A stretch of 50,257 nucleotides of DNA from a virus (Duplodnaviria > Caudoviricetes), in the IMG/VR virus record IMGVR_UViG_3300021090_000030, positions 1-50,257 of that record; one strand, given 5' to 3'. This document shows, in pieces, positions 1 to 50,257 of the stretch (positions are counted from its first letter, which is position 1; the number at the start of each line of letters is the position of its first letter). A program made the position numbers and the translations under genes. Below the pieces are notes generated by a model, which saw only the letters and a list, made by a program, of their open reading frames with translations, searched no databases and was not told where the DNA came from.

Positions 1-12
1 AAGAAAATGGCG
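1..12. repeat. 12-bp terminal direct repeat (AAGAAAATGGCG), identical to 50246-50257; circular assembly overlap
   Basis: Exact match of first and last 12 nt; ORF and translational coupling continue across the join. Confidence 0.85.
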
Positions 13-429
13 TAGGAAGAACAGACGTGCGTGTCGGTATGCATCTATCTTGTGGGGGCTGCCTGCAACATACTCAAGATCTTTGTCGAGGACTTGTACT
101 CTAGATATGTCTCCTGGTACTTGGTACACTACCTGCTTGGGTTGTACTTGATTGATATAGCACATTGCTTCGATTATGCCGATGACTTGGGAGCTAGGGA
201 AGTCACTGCCTACCTGCTGCATAGCCTTGTGTGGAAAGAGTCTGAAGGCTTCTACAACGATGTAGTCATCTTCTTGGGCTTTCGTAAATATGTGATAGAT
301 GGTTGCTAGCCGTTCGTCCCAATCTATCTCGAACGAGTTCATAATTAGGAAGTCTAAGCCCTTATCGTCGACTGTCATACGACAAAAGCCCGTGACACGA
401 CCTGGATCAAACGCTAGGATATCCGCCAT
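1..429 (-). CDS. ruvC: RuvC-like Holliday junction resolvase (continues across the join to stop at 50213-50215; ~153 aa)
   Basis: Manual translation MADILAFDPGRVTG...YIVVEAF...HKIDAYRH; RNase H-fold acidic motifs (DPG, E, D); GGAGA SD upstream; missing from ORF track because it spans the end. Confidence 0.7.
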   Translation of the reverse strand, partial: MADILAFDPGRVTGFCRMTVDDKGLDFLIMNSFEIDWDERLATIYHIFTKAQEDDYIVVEAFRLFPHKAMQQVGSDFPSSQVIGIIEAMCYINQVQPKQVVYQVPGDISRVQVLDKDLEYVAGSPHKIDAYRHARLFFLRHFL

Positions 430-441
430 TTGGGTCTCCAA

Positions 442-6124: not shown

Positions 6125-6191
6125 ATTATATAACATCTACAAGAATATTGAACGTGACAAAAGTACCATTTTTTACGTGACGTTTGTTCCG
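6125..6191 (-). promoter_or_regulatory. Early promoter: TATAAT plus two CGTGA-N6-(TCACG)-like boxes 23 bp apart
   Basis: ATTATA 6125-6130; ACGTGAC at 6152 and 6175; same offsets as promoter at 7286. Confidence 0.7.
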
Positions 6192-6227
6192 TAGCTGATG
6201 GATGAACAAACGTCACGCATATTATGG

Positions 6228-6401
6228 TTAGTCTTCCTTGGATTCTGCGTATAGGCGTACGTCGGTAAGGAGGTCTTGGGCATCATCGAAATCCCACCAA
6301 TACTCCTCGCCTTCCTGATGTTCACATTCCGCAATGTACTCCTCAGCTAGGGAGGCAGGAAAGTTTTTTCGTACAAGGGCTAACGCCGCGTTGCGTTCCA
6401 T
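6228..6401 (-). CDS. Small acidic hypothetical protein
   Basis: MERNAALAL... start at 6401 coupled to upstream stop. Confidence 0.6.
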   Translation of the reverse strand: MERNAALALVRKNFPASLAEEYIAECEHQEGEEYWWDFDDAQDLLTDVRLYAESKED

Positions 6402-6902: not shown

Positions 6903-7229
6903 TTACTCGGCTTCGGTTACTTTCTGATTCGTGCGTTGAAGCGTCGTAATGAAATCAGAATCTTTCAGAAGTTGCTGAATCGCGGCTTCTTCGTCGGCAT
7001 TCATGTACAAGACGAATTTGTTTCTGCCATCTTCACGCTTGCTGTGAGCGCCGCTGGATGCACGCCACGTTTCAAAGTCGCCTAAGTCGATCCAATTCTT
7101 CTCGATTTTCGAATCGCCGATCAGCTCTTTGGTTACCGGCAATTTGCCATGTGCGATCGCCTTTCGAATATATGAATTCGATAAACCACTGATTTCGATC
7201 GCTTCCTTGATACTAATTCTTTTGTTCAT
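6903..7229 (-). CDS. Xis/MerR-like HTH protein, paralog of 5583-5945
   Basis: ISIKEAIEISGLSNSYIRKAIAHGKL; REDGRNKFVLYMNADE; AGGAGA SD. Confidence 0.8.
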   Translation of the reverse strand: MNKRISIKEAIEISGLSNSYIRKAIAHGKLPVTKELIGDSKIEKNWIDLGDFETWRASSGAHSKREDGRNKFVLYMNADEEAAIQQLLKDSDFITTLQRTNQKVTEAE

Positions 7230-7285
7230 TTTAGTCTCCTAAACTATTTTGTTTTTCAGACGACGCTCGTCTGATTTATATAATT

Positions 7286-7352
7286 ATTATAATACACTAT
7301 CGATTTCATCATACGTGACGTTTGTTACGTTGTTGACGTGACGTTTGTTACG
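7286..7352 (-). promoter_or_regulatory. Early promoter: TATAAT plus two identical CGTGACGTTTGTTACG boxes 23 bp apart
   Basis: ATTATA 7286-7291; boxes at 7314-7329 and 7337-7352. Confidence 0.75.
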
Positions 7353-7616
7353 TTACATCTTTATGAACTTATTGTTATTACTACAATCTAGACAGTAGTA
7401 CGTTGATTCTTCAAAACAACTAAACTTTCCAAATCTACCATAGTTCATCGTAAAATATGTATTACATTTATTACAACGAAAGTTTGGTTCATTACGATTA
7501 TTTAGAAAGTAATCAGCTCTTTTTGGTATGAATCGTTTATTCAACTTCTTTACAGATTGTTTTACAACTTCAGATTCATAATTATTTACATATTGTTTGT
7601 AGTGATTCGTTTTCAT
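7353..7616 (-). CDS. AT-rich small zinc-finger-like protein, probably leaderless
   Basis: CNKC...CLDC; ATG 7 nt downstream of TGT-TATTAT; no SD. Confidence 0.55.
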   Translation of the reverse strand: MKTNHYKQYVNNYESEVVKQSVKKLNKRFIPKRADYFLNNRNEPNFRCNKCNTYFTMNYGRFGKFSCFEESTYYCLDCSNNNKFIKM

Positions 7617-7622
7617 AATACA

Positions 7623-7689
7623 ATAATAACATACAACATAAAGGATTCACCGTGACATTCATCACGTCTTTATGGGTATCTTTGTCACG
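7623..7689 (-). promoter_or_regulatory. Early promoter: extended -10 (TGnTATTAT), perfect CGTGA-N6-TCACG box (7651-7666) and half box 23 bp upstream
   Basis: Same box-to--10 spacing as promoters at 6125 and 7286. Confidence 0.65.
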
Positions 7690-7710
7690 TTGTATATCCA
7701 ACAATAGGTA

Positions 7711-8124
7711 TGAGAATGGTATGAGAAACCGATGAGAAACCGATGAGTGGAGTCTGAGAAGACCCTGAGAAACCAATGAAGGGAGTATGAAGGGAGTATG
7801 AGAAACCCATGAGAAACCCTCAAGTAGTCTGAGAATGGTATGAGAAGACCCTGAGAAACCAATAAGTGGAGTATGAAAGTAGTCTGAGAGACCTCTCATG
7901 TAGTCTGAGAAACCCATTAGAGGCACGTGAGAATGAGATGAGTGGTGAGGGTCTGGTGTGGTTATATGAGAACAAGATGAAAGGCACATTAGAATAGTAT
8001 AAGAAACCCATGAGTATAGTCTGAAAGACCGATGAGAGGTCGATGAGGAACCGATGAGAATAGTCTGAGAACCATATGAGAAACCGATGAAGGGTTGATG
8101 AGGGGTACGTGAGAATGACGTGAG
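7711..8124. repeat. Degenerate tandem array of ~38 units, mostly 11 bp, consensus approx. TGAGAAACCGA/TGAGAATAGTC
   Basis: TGA(G) recurs at 7711, 7722, 7733...7810 and with unbroken 11-bp period from 7967 to 8121; purine-rich + strand. Confidence 0.9.
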
Positions 8125-8184
8125 TTTTTGAGGCCCAGTGCTGTCAGCGTGTCTAATATCTCGACCATACCAAATGCCCATGGT

Positions 8185-8198
8185 AACTAAAATTAGTT
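8185..8198. promoter_or_regulatory. AACTAA-N2-TTAGTT palindrome
   Basis: aactaaaattagtt. Confidence 0.55.
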
Positions 8199-9070
8199 CA
8201 CGGTCTCAGTTCAAAACCGCGGGCAACTAATATCTGATATAGTGCCTTAGAAGGAATGCGTGTCTTGTCGTATATTAGTCCCAACGTATGTCCCTTACGA
8301 TACATGTCAACTGCCATATCAACCTGTTCGACAGGATAGCTTGTGTTTCTGCCTCTAAGTGCAACACCCCGTATACGTAACTCATGGTAGAGCGTGGTTG
8401 GACTAACTCCTGTCTTGAGAGCTATCTCATTTGTGATTATTCCTGCACAGTACATTTCAACCGCCTTATCGAGTCTCTCAACATCAACATTGTAACCCCT
8501 CTTTGCAATTCCCCTGATAGCTAATGCTTTGTAGAGTACCGTGGAAGTGACTCCCGTCGCTACATAAACAACACTTAGAGTCTCCATTTGGATGTACATC
8601 TTAACTGCCTTGTTTAGCTGCGTCAAGCGGACGTTATTTGTTGAGCGATTTGGCATTCCCAACTTCTCTAGCTCTGCATATAACCCCGAAGGAGAGATTC
8701 CTGTCTCCACATAAATCGAAGATACCTTCGCGCCGGCGTTGTACATTGCTACGGCTGTCTGCTTTCGGGTCTCCGTCACTCCCTGTGCCTCAACTGCGAC
8801 GGCACGAATGGGTACGCCCTTTTTGTCTAGTAAGGTATATAGTGTTGCGGGGTTTAGATGCCATTTCCCTAGTACGTCCTTTACAGGCATATCCGACTGG
8901 TAATCTTTGCAAATGGCGTCTGCGTTGTTTATGTCAGGAGTACGACCGTAGGCTCTTAATATTTTTCTGACCGCTGTCTCAGATAAATCGGTGTTCGTAG
9001 TGAACTCTTGCATATCTCTAATCCCCGCGTCGTACATCTCCAGCACTTCAATATCTTGGTCTGTAGTCAT
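8198..9070 (-). CDS. Tandem HTH-repeat DNA-binding protein (about six ~47-aa repeats)
   Basis: Repeated AVxMYxxG...IxxxTGVSxxTLYxxLxxxGIxxR. Confidence 0.8.
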   Translation of the reverse strand: MTTDQDIEVLEMYDAGIRDMQEFTTNTDLSETAVRKILRAYGRTPDINNADAICKDYQSDMPVKDVLGKWHLNPATLYTLLDKKGVPIRAVAVEAQGVTETRKQTAVAMYNAGAKVSSIYVETGISPSGLYAELEKLGMPNRSTNNVRLTQLNKAVKMYIQMETLSVVYVATGVTSTVLYKALAIRGIAKRGYNVDVERLDKAVEMYCAGIITNEIALKTGVSPTTLYHELRIRGVALRGRNTSYPVEQVDMAVDMYRKGHTLGLIYDKTRIPSKALYQILVARGFELRP

Positions 9071-9104
9071 GTTGTGTTCTCCTTTCGATCTTGAATTATA
9101 AATA

Positions 9105-9184
9105 ATTATACAACAGTTAGAAAGAAAAAGCCATTAGAAACTAATCTTAGTCTCCGGGACCTTTGTGTTGCCGTAAGGTACAAT
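9105..9184. promoter_or_regulatory. Divergent promoters: leftward TGGCTT-17-TATAAT (9105-9133), operator 9139-9152, rightward TACAAT (9179-9184)
   Basis: Hexamers and spacing read directly; only gap between divergent genes. Confidence 0.65.
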
Positions 9185-9190
9185 TGTGTT

Positions 9191-9721
9191 ATGAGTGACG
9201 AAGACGAAGATATTGTTAGAGTATGGGATCAACAGCCTGGAGAAGGCGATATATGGTACAGGATATTTACTAAGTACTATTTACCGTTGGGGCAGAAAAG
9301 AAATCTTCGGACTGCATTCGAATATTACCTTCGAATGGAGAAACCTATTGACTACATTGATGTAGATCCCGATAACTTCAAGAACATTCCCGCTCATTGG
9401 ACCCAACATGCATTTAAGTTCGAGTGGGCTAAGCGTGCGTTAGAATTCGATCAGGCCTCTGCTCCGGACTTTTCTATGCTACAAGTAAGTCAAACGTTGG
9501 AGTTCCTACGTGAGCATGCTATGAAAGCTGCATATGCTCTTGTAGAGTCACTAACTAATGAGAGAACTAGGGTCCAGGCAGCCAACTCGATTCTTAATCG
9601 TAGTGGCATTCCTGAGGTTAGTGAAGTAAACCTAAAGTCTGCGGTTTCGATAACTGCAGATGAAATGGCTGCAGCACAAGAAAAGGTCACCGAGTGGATG
9701 ACGCAAAAGAAGAGTGGCTAG
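9191..9721 (+). CDS. terS: Terminase small subunit (putative)
   Basis: Immediately upstream of TerL; WDQQPGE...W...WAKRALEFD pattern typical of a TerS class. Confidence 0.65.
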   Translation: MSDEDEDIVRVWDQQPGEGDIWYRIFTKYYLPLGQKRNLRTAFEYYLRMEKPIDYIDVDPDNFKNIPAHWTQHAFKFEWAKRALEFDQASAPDFSMLQVSQTLEFLREHAMKAAYALVESLTNERTRVQAANSILNRSGIPEVSEVNLKSAVSITADEMAAAQEKVTEWMTQKKSG

Positions 9722-11163
9722 CATGTTCACTGTCGTTCGTATATTTTGTAGATCGGTACGTAAAGATCTACGATGCTACGTCTGGTGGTTGGATTCCGTT
9801 TGAACTTTGGCCCGAACAGGTTCGAGTAGCCGAAGAGCTCGTTAACAACCGATTAGTTGCTATCCTGAAAGCGCGTCAGTTGGGTTTGACGTGGTTGGTG
9901 CTCGCTTACATACTATGGATGATGGTTTTCCATCCGGCAGGCACAATGCTTCTATTTTCTCGTCGTGAAGTAGAAGCTATCTACATGCTGGATAAACGTC
10001 TCAAAGGTATGTATAATCGTCTACCTGAGTGGATGGGAGTACGGTCTATTATTTCGGACAGCGCACACATCTGGGAATTGAGTAACGGTTCAGTCGCTTA
10101 CGCATTCCCAACTACTGCAGGTGATTCGTACACAGCTACTTTGGCTTTTGTAGATGAAGCAGATCTATTGCCTGATCTCGACGATCTGATGTTGGCAGTC
10201 AAGCCAACCATTGATGGTGGAGGCAAGATGATTTTGCTAAGCAGGTCCGACAAAGCAGCTCCGAACAGCCCGTTCAAGAAAATATTCATTGAGGCTTGGG
10301 CCGGCAGAAGTGCTTGGAAAGGTATTTTCCTACCATGGTTCGCTAGACCATCCCGGACTGCTAAATGGTACAAAGACCAAGAAGACGACTTTATGTCTCG
10401 AACTGGAACTAGTGATGGTCTACACGAGCAGTACCCAGCAACTCCTGAAGAAGCTCTGGCACCCAGGTCGCTAAACAAAAGGATTCCGTTTGCATGGTTG
10501 CAGAGATGTTATGTACCAATGAAGGGAACGAGGCATGCTAGTATCAACGGACTTACAGTATACCGAGAGCCACAATTGGCACACTCATACATCATATCAG
10601 GAGACCCGGCTGAAGGAAACCCGACATCAGACGATTCGTCTGCACACGTACTAGATGGTCTGACCCTGGAAGAGTGTGCTATGTTAGTTGGTAAGTTCGA
10701 ACCGCTAATGTTTGCAGAGCAGCTTTTAGAGATTTCGGAGTATTATCGTGACGCAGATATAATGGTTGAACGTAATAATCATGGACATGCGGTTATTGCA
10801 ACAATTCGAACTAAAGAAGACAAAGCACATCTCTTGATGAGAGGTCAAGACGGTCGGTATGGATGGCCACAAACCGGTAAGAGCAAGGCGCACCTTTATT
10901 CAGAGGGTGCTAAGTTACTGAAAGATGGAGCTCCTACGATACATAGTTCGGCAACTTTCCTCCAATTAGCCGATATCGAAGGAAGTACACTAAAAGCACC
11001 AGAAGGAAGTTTCGACGATCAGGCAGTAAGTTATATGTTAGGCGTACTAGCAGCTTCTGCCCCACCAGTACAGAACTTTGGATTCCAGTATGCCAGTAGC
11101 CATAGACACAATTCCAAACTTAACGCCCGTAGACGTCGCCATTCTATCGGCAGTATCAGCTGA
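9694..11163 (+). CDS. terL: Terminase large subunit
   Basis: Walker A KARQLGLT, Walker B FVDEAD, nuclease ISGDPAEG, ERNNHG, DDQAVS. Confidence 0.95.
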   Translation: MDDAKEEWLACSLSFVYFVDRYVKIYDATSGGWIPFELWPEQVRVAEELVNNRLVAILKARQLGLTWLVLAYILWMMVFHPAGTMLLFSRREVEAIYMLDKRLKGMYNRLPEWMGVRSIISDSAHIWELSNGSVAYAFPTTAGDSYTATLAFVDEADLLPDLDDLMLAVKPTIDGGGKMILLSRSDKAAPNSPFKKIFIEAWAGRSAWKGIFLPWFARPSRTAKWYKDQEDDFMSRTGTSDGLHEQYPATPEEALAPRSLNKRIPFAWLQRCYVPMKGTRHASINGLTVYREPQLAHSYIISGDPAEGNPTSDDSSAHVLDGLTLEECAMLVGKFEPLMFAEQLLEISEYYRDADIMVERNNHGHAVIATIRTKEDKAHLLMRGQDGRYGWPQTGKSKAHLYSEGAKLLKDGAPTIHSSATFLQLADIEGSTLKAPEGSFDDQAVSYMLGVLAASAPPVQNFGFQYASSHRHNSKLNARRRRHSIGSIS

Positions 11164-36238: not shown

Positions 36239-36437
36239 GGTAAGCCTCCGAAGGTTGTAAGGATTTGAAGGAGTACGGAGCGACGATTATAATCTCGTCC
36301 ACTTTCAGGGCTCTGGCTACTGTCAACGCCTCAGCTAAAAACTCTTCAGTATTAGCTAATACCACACACGTTTTACTTATACGTGAGTAAAAAACCACCG
36401 AATAAGAGACAGAGTTTCCAAAGGAGATCTCAGGCAT
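36219..36437 (-). CDS. Hypothetical protein
   Basis: MPEISFG... start with GGAGA SD overlapping upstream stop. Confidence 0.55.
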   Translation of the reverse strand: MPEISFGNSVSYSVVFYSRISKTCVVLANTEEFLAEALTVARALKVDEIIIVAPYSFKSLQPSEAYRVFRFK

Positions 36438-37170
36438 CTTGTCTCCCAGAGGTCCAAGCAAGTAGTGACAAAGCGTTGTCGTAGGCAAGCCCGGAGTCGA
36501 AGTGCTCGTTCCATACATGCGATATATGTTCTGACTTAACCCTAATAGATCGGCCCTTCTGTGCGTAGGCGAAGGGAGCTGCAGTATCGATTCCACGAAC
36601 CCATGGGGCTATGGCTTTGAGTGCTGGTACTTCGATTCTAGGTTCTCCCCAAACACCTAACAAGTGGATGTTGTAGCTGTTGTGCCAACCCATTTGCTGG
36701 ATGAACGTTAGGATGTTCACTCTACCGTCGCCAAACTGTTCAGTGTGTTTAGGTATACACATGGTAGCAAACTCCATGTTTGATACGAAGAAGTTAGCAC
36801 AGCCCGTCCATTCTTCAAACGTCTCTCCCTGTGGTACCACAGCTCGCATTCTAGCAGGTATGATCTCTAGAACGTCTCGGTCCATGGTTTTCTCGATGGT
36901 AGCTTCGGCATCACGAAGAACGTCAGGCAGGACTACTTCGTCCACATGAAGCATCTGCATTGCGTCGTAAAGTTGTTTAGATGTTAGGAGAGACCCTTCT
37001 GCGGCGCCGTTGTCCATCATTATGAAGTCACCACGACGACTACGTTCTTTATAGAACTCAGCGTACTGAGTATCTTCAAGAAGATATTGGGCTAATACTA
37101 AGTGGTAGGTCAGTCTCATAGAGTTCAGTATCCCGAGACCAGCAAAATCGCTAATCAGTGCCAGTTTCAT
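36430..37170 (-). CDS. TGT-fold transglycosylase-like protein, candidate DpdA-like deazaguanine DNA inserter
   Basis: MDNG, LPD, VVPQG, IHLLG, RGIDT echo TGT/DpdA motifs; coupled to folE. Confidence 0.6.
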   Translation of the reverse strand: MKLALISDFAGLGILNSMRLTYHLVLAQYLLEDTQYAEFYKERSRRGDFIMMDNGAAEGSLLTSKQLYDAMQMLHVDEVVLPDVLRDAEATIEKTMDRDVLEIIPARMRAVVPQGETFEEWTGCANFFVSNMEFATMCIPKHTEQFGDGRVNILTFIQQMGWHNSYNIHLLGVWGEPRIEVPALKAIAPWVRGIDTAAPFAYAQKGRSIRVKSEHISHVWNEHFDSGLAYDNALSLLAWTSGRQDA

Positions 37171-37712
37171 ACGCCTCCTACTAGATGTAGAAACTCTTGA
37201 CGTGCTTCCATAGACGTTAGAAACGCTCCGCGCATCTCACTTGTAACCATAGACGCGTTACGTTCTTTTACTCCACGACATGACATACACGTATGTACAG
37301 ACTTTACGATTACAGCCACGCCCTGTGCCTCTACAGTGTCTTTTAAGAAAGACGCTATGGCACGAGTAAACGTTTCTTGTGTACTTGGACGTGCCGCGAA
37401 GTGATGGACGATGCGAGGAATCTTGCTCACGCCTATCATCAACTTGTTAGGTATGTAACCTACATGGGCAGTGCCCGAAAACGGAAATAAGTGGTGTGCG
37501 CACAGGGCAGAGAACTCGATGCCCCTAACCACTATCAGCTGATTGGCTGTGGCTTTGAACGTTGTCGGATTGAAGTCAACGACCGAGCTTGTCTTGAACT
37601 CGTTCATTGCCTTCATCCAACGTTTGGCCGTCTCGTTGACTGAGTCGTCCCAAACAGTTTCGCCGAACGTGTCGGCTAAGAACTTTGCTAGTTGCTTCTC
37701 AAAAATTGCCAT
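37167..37712 (-). CDS. folE: GTP cyclohydrolase I
   Basis: SALCAHHLFPF, IGVSKIPR, QE, HTCMSCRG. Confidence 0.93.
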   Translation of the reverse strand: MAIFEKQLAKFLADTFGETVWDDSVNETAKRWMKAMNEFKTSSVVDFNPTTFKATANQLIVVRGIEFSALCAHHLFPFSGTAHVGYIPNKLMIGVSKIPRIVHHFAARPSTQETFTRAIASFLKDTVEAQGVAVIVKSVHTCMSCRGVKERNASMVTSEMRGAFLTSMEARQEFLHLVGGV

Positions 37713-37721
37713 GTTGGTCTC

Positions 37722-38405
37722 CTATCTCATATTGAGTCTATATTGTAGTCGATCACCGAAGCGTGGTTGATACTGATGGTAATTAACCTGTCCCTGAGTA
37801 AGGAGTTCCATGGTCTTCTTTATGGACTGAACTCCTGGAGGACATCCCTCAGGCATCAATACAACACCTTCTAGAGTCTTGTCGTTCTCGAAGTAGAAAT
37901 AGTCTATCACTCCCTGCATATCTAGAACTGAGATTTCGTCGTCGACTACGAATTTGATTTCGTTTGTGATGTCTTTCAGCTCTGTAGGAGCTTGGAAGTT
38001 TAGATTCTTTTTCGGCGACCAAGTCACCCAATCTGGCGTTAACGTACCGACAAGGTTTTTGAGTCCCGACGTCTCAAGTTGTGTTGTATATCCCAAAGCC
38101 TTGCACGCCGCCAATATAGGGTCTAAGTTCCAAATGGTGGGTTCGCCCCCTGTAATAATAACGTGCCTTTCGTGGATAGCGTCCATAATCTCCGTTAAGG
38201 TCTTCACCTCACCACCAGGACCCCAAGTGTTTGCCGTCATGCCATTTGTACGACGCTTACCTTCTAACCAATTGGCTAAGGGTCCTGAATCACACCATGA
38301 ACAACCGACAGGACATCCCTGTAACCGAATAAATGTGGCCGGTATGCCCGTTAGAAGGCCTTCCCCTTGTATTGAATCGAACTGTTCATTCACTCTGTAG
38401 TTCAT
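37722..38405 (-). CDS. queE: 7-carboxy-7-deazaguanine synthase (radical SAM)
   Basis: SIQGEG, FIRLQGCPVGCSWCD, TGGEP, ETSG, SPK; start MNYRVNE at 38405. Confidence 0.92.
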   Translation of the reverse strand: MNYRVNEQFDSIQGEGLLTGIPATFIRLQGCPVGCSWCDSGPLANWLEGKRRTNGMTANTWGPGGEVKTLTEIMDAIHERHVIITGGEPTIWNLDPILAACKALGYTTQLETSGLKNLVGTLTPDWVTWSPKKNLNFQAPTELKDITNEIKFVVDDEISVLDMQGVIDYFYFENDKTLEGVVLMPEGCPPGVQSIKKTMELLTQGQVNYHQYQPRFGDRLQYRLNMR

Positions 38406-38406
38406 G

Positions 38407-38961
38407 TTAGCTTCCTGTAGCCCCGTCAAACAACTCACGTAAGACAGGGAATATAATGATGCTGGTTGCAGCGAGTGGCTCACCTATAAGTGAAATACCT
38501 GCAATTAGTATTCTAAATAGTAGATGAGGCATCTGTTCTGCCCCAGTCAAAGTAACGGCCAAGTCAACGAAAGAACCGAACCGAAGGATGTCTGGTGCCA
38601 AGTAGTCAAAGTAAACGTCTATACTTATAGGTATCAAGGCAACCACACATACTGCTATCAAGATACCTCCATTCCATTGTTCTTTGACTCCGTATAAAAC
38701 CGTTCCCATCAAAGCCATTATTAGTCCTGTTGTAGCCAGGGATGTGAACCACCCTACTTGGTTGTTCGACATATGTTCTACACTTACTTGGCCTGCTAGC
38801 ACGTCTATGCCTATCAAGGAGACCAAAGCCGAAACAGCAACCAGGAACGAAAAGACAGCTAGGATGTACGGTCCTAAATCGAACATTCTAGCCAGCAACG
38901 TTGAATTCCTTTTAGTAGCGTAGCCTTGAGGTGTGTGTGGTCTTGCATTTTGATACGTCAT
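38407..38961 (-). CDS. Multi-pass membrane protein
   Basis: About four hydrophobic helices. Confidence 0.7.
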   Translation of the reverse strand: MTYQNARPHTPQGYATKRNSTLLARMFDLGPYILAVFSFLVAVSALVSLIGIDVLAGQVSVEHMSNNQVGWFTSLATTGLIMALMGTVLYGVKEQWNGGILIAVCVVALIPISIDVYFDYLAPDILRFGSFVDLAVTLTGAEQMPHLLFRILIAGISLIGEPLAATSIIIFPVLRELFDGATGS

Positions 38962-38963
38962 GT

Positions 38964-39224
38964 TTACTCTCCTTTCAATCGTTCAGCCATCTGCTTACAT
39001 AGTGTCGCATAACCTATGATGTCGTCGTAGTTATCAAGATGATACGGGTCGGACAGCATACGTATAAGCTTGGATAACATAAGTACCCAATTGTGCGAGA
39101 ACATGGGTGCTGTGTTAAGCATAGCCAAAAACGGGTCTGTCAGGGCACCCATAACCATTCCTGTTAGCTCGTGTGCATTACCGTAATGCTTTTCCTTCTC
39201 GTCGAGTAAGGATTGAATGTTCAT
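38964..39224 (-). CDS. DUF6378-like (MazG-related nucleotide hydrolase-like) protein
   Basis: E..HYG...KLIR...HLDNYDDIIGYA. Confidence 0.65.
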   Translation of the reverse strand: MNIQSLLDEKEKHYGNAHELTGMVMGALTDPFLAMLNTAPMFSHNWVLMLSKLIRMLSDPYHLDNYDDIIGYATLCKQMAERLKGE

Positions 39225-39637
39225 TTGTTCATCTCCAGGTACATTATAGCATTCTGTAACTTTACAGGATCGTCGTCGAACCTACCAAGTCCATGATTGC
39301 ACTTTGCACATAGAAGTCCTCTTACCTTACCCGTCTTGTGGTCGTGATCGATCACCAACTTCTGACCTACACGAGTACATATCCCACAACCCCCTTCTTG
39401 TCGTTCAAACATTTCGTTGAACTGCTCAATGGTAAGGTTGTACAGAACTTTGAGGTTCGACCTTCTATGTATCTGCTTCGTTCGGTTAGCCTTGTGATAC
39501 GCCTTGTGTGCATCCTTTTCGCACTCTTTACAGCGGTTAGAAAGTCCGTCCTTAGAAGCTTTCCTACGATAGAACTCGCTAATAGGCTTCAGTATAGGAC
39601 GGTTTTCTCGCGCCGTGCATCCTGGACATAACTTCAT
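39221..39637 (-). CDS. Endonuclease VII-like HNH nuclease
   Basis: CxxC zinc finger, QEGGCGIC, DHDHKTGKVRGLLCAKCN. Confidence 0.9.
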   Translation of the reverse strand: MKLCPGCTARENRPILKPISEFYRRKASKDGLSNRCKECEKDAHKAYHKANRTKQIHRRSNLKVLYNLTIEQFNEMFERQEGGCGICTRVGQKLVIDHDHKTGKVRGLLCAKCNHGLGRFDDDPVKLQNAIMYLEMNK

Positions 39638-40069
39638 TTAGACTCCTTCGTAAACAGCTACGCTTTTGGGGGTTTCATGTACGATAACTCTTACGTTTTC
39701 GACTTGTAGCATGAAGGCATTACGAACCCATCCATGGATAAGATGTGCTAGGGTCTCAGCCGTACTGTTGGGTACGCCCAAAATGAAAGCATCTCCGCGT
39801 TCGCTGGCAATGACTGCATACGGGTCACCGTGTCGAGTATTGCTCTGCGAGACGAGATACCGATGGTCCATCTGATCTATTAGTGGCTTGACGGCCTGGT
39901 CGAGAAGGCCATAGTCCAACACCATACCCTGTACGTCTAGCGTACCTGAATTTATCTCGACAACAACCTTATAGTTGTGTCCGTGAAGACGACCACACTT
40001 AGGATGTCCTTCGATCCTGTGCGCAGCTGAGAACCAATATTCTCGGGAGATTGTATATCTGTTATACAT
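39638..40069 (-). CDS. queD: 6-carboxytetrahydropterin synthase
   Basis: FSAAH, CGRLHGHNY, DH, STAE, ETP. Confidence 0.93.
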   Translation of the reverse strand: MYNRYTISREYWFSAAHRIEGHPKCGRLHGHNYKVVVEINSGTLDVQGMVLDYGLLDQAVKPLIDQMDHRYLVSQSNTRHGDPYAVIASERGDAFILGVPNSTAETLAHLIHGWVRNAFMLQVENVRVIVHETPKSVAVYEGV

Positions 40070-40850
40070 TGGGCCACTCCTCTAAGTCCTCAGTTGGAAC
40101 TTCTGGTCCCAGTATGTCGACCAACGAAATGTTGTAGCCTGTTGGGTCGTAGAAACCACACTCAGCAAAGGCATTAGCTCGCTCAATACAAGTAGGGCAT
40201 CGACCACAGTGAATGTACTCGTTCAATTCGGTTGTTACTGGATTGTAGCAAGACCAAGTTAGCTGCAGCGGAGCATCCAATTCAACTGCACGAGATACGA
40301 TGTCAGCCTTCGTCATCCAAATAAATGGGAAGACTAGACGGACCTTGTCGTACGTACCAACTCGTATAGCATTTGCCATCGCACCTAAGAACTCAGGTGT
40401 ACAATCTGGATACGCCCAGTCGTGTGCATCATCTCCGTGCGCTCCAATGTATACGTAATCGAATCCTCGTGCATCGGCTAACGCAGTTGCTATACTAAGG
40501 AGATTGGCATTACGGAAGGGTACGACTGTTGGGGAAGGACCTACTGACCCTTTGATTTCCCCATAAGTCATGTGAGGCATCTCAATCTCACCCATCAAAG
40601 CCGACCCGTGTCCATTGCTTGAGAAGATTTCGCTCGGCAAGTCGAAAGTAATACGGTGGATGTCGCACACAAATTCGTACTGCTCTTGGTACCATGCAAC
40701 TATCTGCGCTGCTGCTTGACTCTCTGCTTCGTTATGTAGACCGCCATACCCAATAGATACGGCTAGGATTTCGTCTGCTCCGTCAACGATTGCCTGAGAC
40801 AGTAGTGTGGTACTATCCAAGCCCCCCGAATGCAAGACGACTGCTTTCAT
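40062..40850 (-). CDS. queC: 7-cyano-7-deazaguanine synthase
   Basis: SGGLDS, VPFRN, YPDC, TWSCY, CGRCPTC. Confidence 0.95.
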   Translation of the reverse strand: MKAVVLHSGGLDSTTLLSQAIVDGADEILAVSIGYGGLHNEAESQAAAQIVAWYQEQYEFVCDIHRITFDLPSEIFSSNGHGSALMGEIEMPHMTYGEIKGSVGPSPTVVPFRNANLLSIATALADARGFDYVYIGAHGDDAHDWAYPDCTPEFLGAMANAIRVGTYDKVRLVFPFIWMTKADIVSRAVELDAPLQLTWSCYNPVTTELNEYIHCGRCPTCIERANAFAECGFYDPTGYNISLVDILGPEVPTEDLEEWPNV

Positions 40851-50220: not shown

Positions 50221-50257
50221 TATGAGCCTCCTGAAAAGGGTTTGAAAGAAAATGGCG

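Follow-up and report, generated by a model that had tools for sequence, protein, structure and literature searches.

A degenerate 11-bp repeat array beside a tandem helix-turn-helix gene in a phage genome, and its possible role as a phased protein-binding element

The window analyzed here, all 50,257 nucleotides of the IMG/VR virus record IMGVR_UViG_3300021090_000030, carries about 420 bp of degenerate 11-bp units at 7711-8131, and the question raised by this locus is what such an array does in the genome of a phage. A protein-coated DNA element is the most economical reading, which supports the initial annotation, made from the sequence alone, where a protein-coated or wrapped element had been proposed. 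We tentatively regard the array as a set of about 37 phased binding sites, most likely for the protein with six helix-turn-helix (HTH) domains encoded next to it; the ligand, register and role described below we infer from sequence comparison and structure prediction.

The array was found where the initial annotation had placed it, and 35 direct and two inverted units were counted against the ~38 claimed. The units are arranged in four phase blocks:

7711-8131, plus strand: array of 11-bp units, 35 direct and two inverted, in four phase blocks, ~420 bp
7711-7818, plus strand: block 1, 10 direct units, the last of 9 bp, each opening with TGAG or TGAA
7819-7829, plus strand: inverted unit CTCAAGTAGTC, which with the preceding unit gives TGAG-N5-CTCA; first phase break
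7830-7894, plus strand: block 2, six units, the last of 10 bp
7895-7905, plus strand: inverted unit CTCATGTAGTC, which with the preceding unit gives the palindrome TGAGAG-AC-CTCTCA; second phase break
7906-7949, plus strand: block 3, four units
7950-7966: 17-bp spacer without a core, between blocks 3 and 4
7967-8131, plus strand: block 4, 15 units in perfect phase

The phase shifts between the blocks are -2, -1, and +6, and block 4 corresponds to the 15 unit starts in perfect phase that had been reported from 7967. The core of the unit reads T-[G/a/t]-A-[G/a]-R-R. Among the 35 direct units, T1 and A3 are invariant (35/35 each), G2 is found in 31/35 (A in 2, T in 2), G4 in 29/35 (A in 6), A5 in 25/35, a purine at position 6 in 34/35, and A11 in 23/35. 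Positions 7-10 are nearly uninformative, with 0.15-0.31 bit each, and the unit tails fall into recurring classes (AACCNA, ATGGTA/ATAGTC, AGACCC, and GGGAGTA/TGGAGTC). The composition of the plus strand (A 151, G 129, T 80, C 54) amounts to 68% purine, in agreement with the purine skew noticed earlier. The duplicated blocks noticed at the same time are also present; they measure 33 and 44 bp, with copies 74-79% identical, and identical neighboring units occur as well.

The array is not a chance feature, and nothing comparable was found elsewhere in the genome or in shuffled sequence. Autocorrelation gave an identity of 0.52 at lag 11, establishing the 11-bp period, whereas the best lag (4-30) in 2000 shuffles had a mean identity of 0.325 and never exceeded 0.38, and the highest value reached by 489 other 421-bp genomic windows was 0.357. 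The pattern TGAG-N7-TGAG-N7-TGAG matches nine times genome-wide, all within the array, where 0.01 matches were expected from 100 shuffles, and the full 9-mer TGAGAAACC is found in the array and nowhere else in the genome. A weight matrix derived from the array gave no secondary cluster elsewhere in the genome. Three stretches of the window (7413-7738, 7748-7911, and 7994-8144) recur without a difference in contigs from a second sample and study, none of which spans the whole array, and the array thus does not stem from one assembly alone. An exact 17-mer from the array had no match in other records.

Relaxed B-DNA has 10.5 bp per turn, and sites spaced at 11.0 bp would therefore drift by ~17 degrees per unit. 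The claim that TGAG is placed on one helical face thus holds locally and fails over distance. With such a precession, a continuous coat would either follow a shallow superhelix or need underwound DNA, as in wrapped complexes.

In order to judge conservation, three syntenic genomes were compared, namely the window, G001 (47.9 kb, estimated to be 85% complete), and G002 (31.6 kb, estimated to be 54% complete), the latter two having been obtained via a profile of the HTH-protein family. Identities of G001 and G002 to the window range from 71-74% for the large terminase TerL (G002 71%, G001 74%) and 69-73% for the portal protein to 54-58% for the small terminase TerS (58% in G001), 56-62% for a 108-amino-acid early protein, and 32-36% for the HTH protein. 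The three genomes are about equidistant, although TerS, PolA, and the HTH protein place G001 and G002 slightly nearer to each other. In G002, an array of ~450 bp (L252 6838-7290) lies between the same two genes as the window array. It consists of ~14 units of the TGAG/TGAA/TTAG kinds on one strand, four inverted units, 3-4 direct units, and then ~13 units on the other strand, the latter of the TAAGTGGTAAG type and recalling TAAGTGGAGTA of the window. Over 35 slots, T1 is kept in 32/35, A3 in 34/35, and G4 in 28/35, and position 2 is G in 23, A in 6, and T in 5. The two arrays thus share the core, the 11-bp period, and the minor variants (TGAA, TAAG, TTAG), and differ in their tails. Between the window and G002, the identity at fourfold-degenerate sites of the TerL, capsid, portal, and PolA genes amounts to 30-39% only. 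As neutral sites are near saturation and core and period are nevertheless retained, purifying selection on both is implied. Judged from this comparison, core and spacing appear to be under selection, and the earlier proposal that selection acts on spacing is borne out by a T-N-A-R core kept at 11 bp in ~35 slots of G002.

All core variants observed (TGAG, TGAA, TAAG, TTAG, and TTAA) contain a stop codon on the unit strand, in 35/35 units of the window and 32/35 slots of G002 at L252 6838-7264, and C at core position 2 is never seen in the window and seen once in G002. The stop codon in every variant may reflect ligand tolerance or mutation bias only.

Equivalent arrays in related genomes, which the initial annotation had proposed to look for as a check, are found in G002 and not in G001, where the corresponding interval instead holds a small divergent HTH regulator and three operators. 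The array is consequently dispensable, which argues against it being the sole packaging (pac) site or origin of replication. If G001 and G002 are sisters, the array would be ancestral and lost once, by parsimony on three genomes only. Farther out, no 11-bp array of this kind was found in 160 loci with TerL relatives at 26-61% identity, and a megablast search with 7000-10500 against cultured phages gave no match. Single-query searches of IMG/VR with the HTH protein and TerL gave no close relative, and a word-index search with the HTH protein matched only itself; TerL relatives at 65-74% identity do exist in a protein search, the G002 record being one of them, and two of the proteins (P0004 against viral contigs, P0005 against genome contigs) gave distant matches only. 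Scans of IMG/VR for the core pattern returned 87 and 62 loci, in which the long chains were almost all perfect microsatellites.

Short-period arrays were also observed in other viral contigs. An unrelated contig (L262, reverse strand, 1782-2100) carries 29 degenerate 11-bp units of T[T/G]AGACGC followed by three variable bases, starting right after the stop codon of a gene that by eye is epimerase-like. The core of these units is not that of the window; degenerate 11-bp T-N-A-G arrays are thus not unique to this phage group. In phages with TerL 39-48% identical, other short-period degenerate arrays lie upstream of terL at inconsistent positions. These comprise 5-bp NNGGC/NNGGA units at L104 1275-1470 and at L113 4940-5310 and 5580-5810, where the two arrays flank a 97-amino-acid open reading frame (ORF) just before terL, and 7-bp GCTGNNG units followed by their inverted complement at L112 2800-2970.

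The combination of an invariant core and free tails is the pattern of a protein recognition site and not of a drifting satellite. In addition, both orientations occur, in the blocks of G002 and in the two inverted units of the window, as is more readily expected of sites read in double-stranded DNA than of an RNA signal tied to one strand. The locus has the hallmarks of a binding array: an invariant core of 4-6 bp, free gaps, a spacing of about one turn, use of either orientation, a single copy in the genome, and a position beside regulatory DNA. Two features nearby bear on the identity of the ligand:

8198-9070, minus strand: gene for a 290-amino-acid protein with six tandem three-helix HTH domains (HTH_7/HTH_23 type), the candidate array binder
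9133-9145: palindrome ATTAGAAACTAAT in the divergent promoter region between the HTH gene and terS, the best-conserved block of the spacer in all three phages

The stop codon of the HTH gene lies 67 bp from the array. Its product matches Pfam HTH_7 (2.3e-11) and the PHROGs family phrog_1303, annotated as 'DNA binding protein' (1e-26), and the AlphaFold model consists of six three-helix bundles connected by low-confidence flexible linkers (mean pLDDT 79.5, pTM 0.26). The family includes 10 further full-length relatives with 6-7 modules (E < 1e-30). No member was found in 401 genomes from the phylum of a metagenome-assembled genome with a distant TerL, a result that is uninformative either way. 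The closest solved structure is Cbp2 (2lvs), which was matched by sequence profile across two modules (E 2e-5) and ranked first in a Foldseek search with the model (probability 1.00, E 0.03). One arm of the palindrome, ATTAGAAAC, differs from the array consensus ATGAGAAAC by one base, and that variant also occurs inside both arrays. That all three phages retain a palindrome with such a unit-like arm at the divergent promoters speaks for binding by the HTH protein, the likeness of arm and unit being a lead only.

Based on these observations, the site would consist of the core ATGAGAR repeated at 11-bp intervals, the positions in between being free. Each small HTH domain would dock into the major groove of one core, successive domains on their short flexible linkers could reach successive units, and several copies of the protein would coat the ~420 bp as a gently wound nucleoprotein filament. 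With one domain per unit, six domains would cover ~66 bp, and about six proteins would fill the array. The filament would be located at the boundary of the HTH gene and the leftward early operator/promoter cluster, ~1.1 kb from the divergent HTH/terS promoter, where it might act as an insulator, as a silencer, or as a reservoir that titrates the regulator and times a switch. As G001 keeps both the protein and the terminase without the array, an accessory architectural or regulatory role is favored over an essential site for packaging or replication. A more far-reaching version, possible but doubtful, is that the protein of six or seven HTH domains reads the array like 'beads on a string', one unit per domain, and polymerizes over ~400 bp into dedicated phage chromatin. 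In that case the array would represent a kind of cis element not described before. It would titrate its own regulator and in this way insulate or time the early/late switch, or else it would nucleate packaging, with selection acting on the 6-bp core and the spacing and leaving the rest of the unit and its orientation free.

Several observations weigh against binding by the HTH protein. The comparison comprises only three genomes, and in one of these, G001, a seven-module homologue of the HTH protein and the same flanking genes are present with no array at the locus or anywhere in 47,931 bases. Homologues with about three modules are encoded near terL in six more distant relatives (TerL ~50-56% identical), in three of the six at 0.6-0.8 kb upstream and on the opposite strand, and no 11-bp array was seen downstream of the three-module gene in these six loci, the stretch being short in two. 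The HTH protein can hence do without the array, and the two may be neighbors simply because the intergenic spot is a permissive one. Moreover, the unit tails show no six-unit register (lag 6, z = -0.98, with weak peaks at lags 4, 7, and 11, z ~1.8-1.9), the weight matrix of the array does not rank the palindrome among the top 12 genome hits, and the Foldseek E-value of 0.03 comes with low whole-model TM-scores.

The genome around the array is organized in two divergent arms, and the following features are relevant to the weighing of other explanations:

7353-7616, minus strand: gene for an 87-amino-acid zinc-ribbon protein with two CxxC pairs (weak zinc-ribbon match, E 0.0028)
7651-7689, minus strand: operator-like sites and promoter region of gene 7353-7616, with CGTGA-N6-TCACG at 7651-7666 and ATCTTTGTCACG at 7678-7689; adjoins the array
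9191-9721, plus strand: terS-like gene, which opens the rightward structural arm
9694-11163, plus strand: terL, in the rightward structural arm

The record is a circularly assembled phage genome of ~50 kb. Its ends share 12 identical bases (1-12 and 50246-50257), and the left-end ORF (1-441, minus strand) reads across the junction to a stop codon. IMG/VR lists the record as linear, and a Logan contig from the likely source run has the same starting base as the window. The two arms diverge at the spacer 9070-9191. The rightward arm holds the terS-like gene, terL, the portal gene, and structural and lysis genes to ~33.5 kb, and leftward and around the junction there are small early genes and a replication module (PolA, primase, helicase, a Sak4-like protein, an exonuclease, and a FolE/QueE/QueD/QueC set). 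The array is separated from the primase, helicase, and PolA genes by 25-40 kb. TerL reached Pfam Terminase_6N with E 7.9e-4, which is below the cut-off, and phrog_2 with 1e-23, and shares 25-27% identity with T4-like TerL; judged by these matches it weakly resembles T4-type headful terminases and is not T7-like. Among 53 ORFs scanned against Pfam or PHROGs, a set made up largely of ORFs of at least 80 amino acids, there was no integrase, partition NTPase, ParM, ParA, TubZ, ribbon-helix-helix, or Rep-type gene. No tRNA genes were found, and the genome has a lytic appearance.

The array had been described as lying between the early promoters and the terminase operon. It does lie near the terminase genes, ending at 8131, 1.07-1.48 kb from the start of terS, but the HTH gene on the other strand intervenes, and the immediate neighbors of the array are the 3' end of this gene and the operator/promoter cluster, not terS. 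AT-rich DNA flanking the array is limited to a short promoter stretch at ~7617-7650. Related GTGAY..GTCAC sites and a conserved TATAAT promoter occur upstream of the 108-amino-acid early gene in all three phages. Sites resembling operators and based on ACGTGAC/GTCACG recur at 6165-6228, 7312-7359, and 7651-7689 and probably constitute an early-gene switch. The zinc-ribbon protein has a homologue in G002 (L252 9340-9624) and none in G001, the same presence and absence as the array, which is a weak phyletic hint from three genomes only. At some distance, FolE, QueE-like, QueD-like, and QueC-like genes are located at 37167-40850 on the minus strand, the set that phages use for 7-deazaguanine DNA modifications. 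No transglycosylase (DpdA) was recognized, and two ORFs of unknown function at 36430-37170 and 38407-38961 are without a Pfam match and present in both relatives.

Other explanations of the array differ in whether protein, RNA, or DNA is thought to be the active form. The array is very probably non-coding. Its plus strand contains 47 stop codons over three frames; the three minus-strand frames hold five stops in total, and one of them is open over the entire array as part of a 199-codon ORF (7582-8181). That this ORF encodes a 199-amino-acid repeat protein is hardly credible. A fully open minus-strand frame is retained in 65% of unit-order shuffles, so that the open frame follows from unit composition. 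No Shine-Dalgarno sequence precedes the ATG of this ORF, whereas the neighboring genes have AGGAGAC, and the ORF has no Pfam or PHROG match and no tblastn match in G001 or G002. The G002 array is crossed by short ORFs only, in different frames and on different strands, no ORF is common to both arrays, and conservation tracks the 11-nt unit and not a codon frame. Protein coding, which the initial annotation had named among the observations that would refute its proposal, was thus looked for and left an ORF of compositional origin, with neither ribosome-binding site nor homologue. We also consider it very unlikely that the array works as RNA, either as a minus-strand transcript 3' of the HTH gene that loads Rho or sponges an RNA-binding protein, or through plus-strand stops that bar translation in three frames. 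The minus-strand RNA would indeed contain 31% C and 13% G and show a YC dinucleotide at 11-nt intervals, it would be untranslated and follow a stop codon, and every core variant holds a stop codon (35/35 in the window, 32/35 in G002). However, the G002 array contains large blocks facing either way with respect to its neighboring genes, an arrangement incompatible with a strand-specific RNA signal. Moreover, the array folds no better than its shuffles on either strand (z = -1.35 and +0.52), and an Rfam search gave no family (best hit E 0.77, with 22 bits against a gathering score of 45). A CRISPR array was ruled out, as the 11-bp units abut without spacers and CRISPR repeats are ~24-40 bp long with unique spacers of comparable length; the earlier statement that the array is not CRISPR-like therefore stands. 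A functionless minisatellite, the period of which is kept by slippage and block duplication, is improbable as well. Recent duplications (the 33- and 44-bp copies at 74-79% identity), identical neighboring units, the loss of the array from G001 without obvious harm, and the perfect 11-bp microsatellites with similar cores in unrelated viral contigs would all agree with it. Drift, however, should strike the 11 positions evenly, whereas T1 and A3 are kept in 35/35 units with positions 7-10 near random, and the same core and variant spectrum recur in G002 despite near-saturated neutral sites.

Among the explanations that likewise invoke DNA-bound protein, a pac site, on which a ring of the small terminase binds the phased cores, wraps the DNA, and marks the first headful cut, has some appeal and is nonetheless doubtful. 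The array is 1.07-1.48 kb from the terS start, TerL weakly resembles T4-type headful terminases, and the circular assembly is what would be expected for permuted genomes. In the SPP1/SF6 system, the HTHs of the TerS ring are described as lying about one DNA turn apart and pac as containing sets of direct repeats (PMC4737164). On the other hand, G001, with TerS 58% and TerL 74% identical, has no array in 47,931 bases at 85% estimated completeness. The array is thus present in two of the three syntenic genomes that share the terminase, and it is not conserved as a pac site should be. It overlaps neither terS nor its promoter, a whole opposite-strand gene lies between, and its ~420 bp are several times the ~100 bp that one TerS ring would wrap. 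The suggestion that a physical genome end or packaging terminus falls here is not supported, given the circular assembly with 12-bp shared ends and the absence of the array from G001 despite its TerS at 58% identity; no long terminal or internal duplicate was found in the record. Regulators of the OmpR/PhoB family bind direct repeats placed head-to-tail every 10-11 bp, and the array might instead be bound by a host winged-helix response regulator of this type, as a decoy or as the input of a host signal to the early promoter. We find this rather unlikely. The layout of 6-7 conserved and 4-5 free positions, head-to-tail every 11 bp, is that of classic Pho-box-type sites, the array is directly upstream of the operator/promoter cluster, and an accessory function dependent on the host would agree with G001 doing without the array. 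In contrast, 37 sites are far above any known regulatory region of this type, and the case is one of resemblance. The iteron period of R1 parC is 11 bp, which the direct repeats of the array recall, and iterons of a replication origin or a plasmid-type centromere would be polymerized upon by an initiator or a centromere-binding protein, as by ParR on R1 parC. TP228 parH offers a further parallel, being described as an array of degenerate short boxes with spacers (PMC3130281). With 35 direct units the array does have the iteron period of about one turn, but no adjacent ParR/ParM or partition NTPase genes were found, nor any ParM, ParA, TubZ, or Rep-type gene among the 53 ORFs scanned, and the centromere-like partition site proposed earlier is thus not supported. 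PolA, primase, and helicase are encoded by the phage itself, neither an integrase nor a plasmid-maintenance gene was seen, and the array is absent from G001; we hold an origin or centromere to be unlikely. The probability left by binding of the HTH protein and by these six rivals is reserved for explanations outside the list.

Phased binding by the tandem-HTH protein would be of interest beyond this phage. Plasmids make centromeres from long phased arrays bound by a single protein, and some viruses use such arrays to mark DNA for packaging or silencing; here an array of ~37 sites has been kept over near-saturated neutral divergence, yet is expendable in a sister lineage. If the protein does read the array domain by domain, the pair would represent a compact modular DNA-recognition system and a tractable model of phage genome organization and timing.

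Compared with known systems, the array is similar to the short-repeat arrays of T7, the analogy drawn in the initial annotation, in consisting of degenerate short tandem repeats in non-coding phage DNA. The T7 arrays, however, adjoin terminal repeats, whereas there is no sign of direct terminal repeats or fixed ends here, and the terminase is not T7-like. Pho-box-type operators, which are bound by host winged-helix proteins, share the 11-bp head-to-tail units with 6-7 conserved and 4-5 free positions and hold 2 to ~9 units compared with ~37 here. In R1 parC, two sets of five-fold iterons are described as bound by ParR (PMC2241845). Both parC/ParR and parH/ParG have head-to-tail short repeats that, as reported, are bound cooperatively into a higher-order complex (PMC2241845, PMC3130281). 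The present array differs in having ~37 units compared with 10, no ParM/ParA motor or ribbon-helix-helix gene among the ORFs scanned, and no arrangement in two sets flanking its own promoter. The pac regions of SPP1 and SF6 resemble it by their location near the terminase genes and by direct repeats at a spacing of about one turn that suits an HTH ring (PMC4737164). SPP1 pac differs in that it spans the terS promoters and the terS start and has few repeats, whereas this array is ~1.1 kb away, extends over ~420 bp, and is missing in a close relative. Cbp2 is described as a pair of HTHs connected through a basic linker and binding to the repeats in CRISPR DNA (PMC3597662), and Cbp1 together with Cren7 as forming chromatin-like structures on CRISPR arrays (PMC10883916). 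Compared with the two or three HTHs of these archaeal proteins, the phage protein has six or seven, its similarity to them is modest and is known from sequence and model, and the repeats next to it abut at 11 bp with no spacers. In both settings, nevertheless, a string of small, linker-joined HTH domains is found beside a long and regular repeat array.

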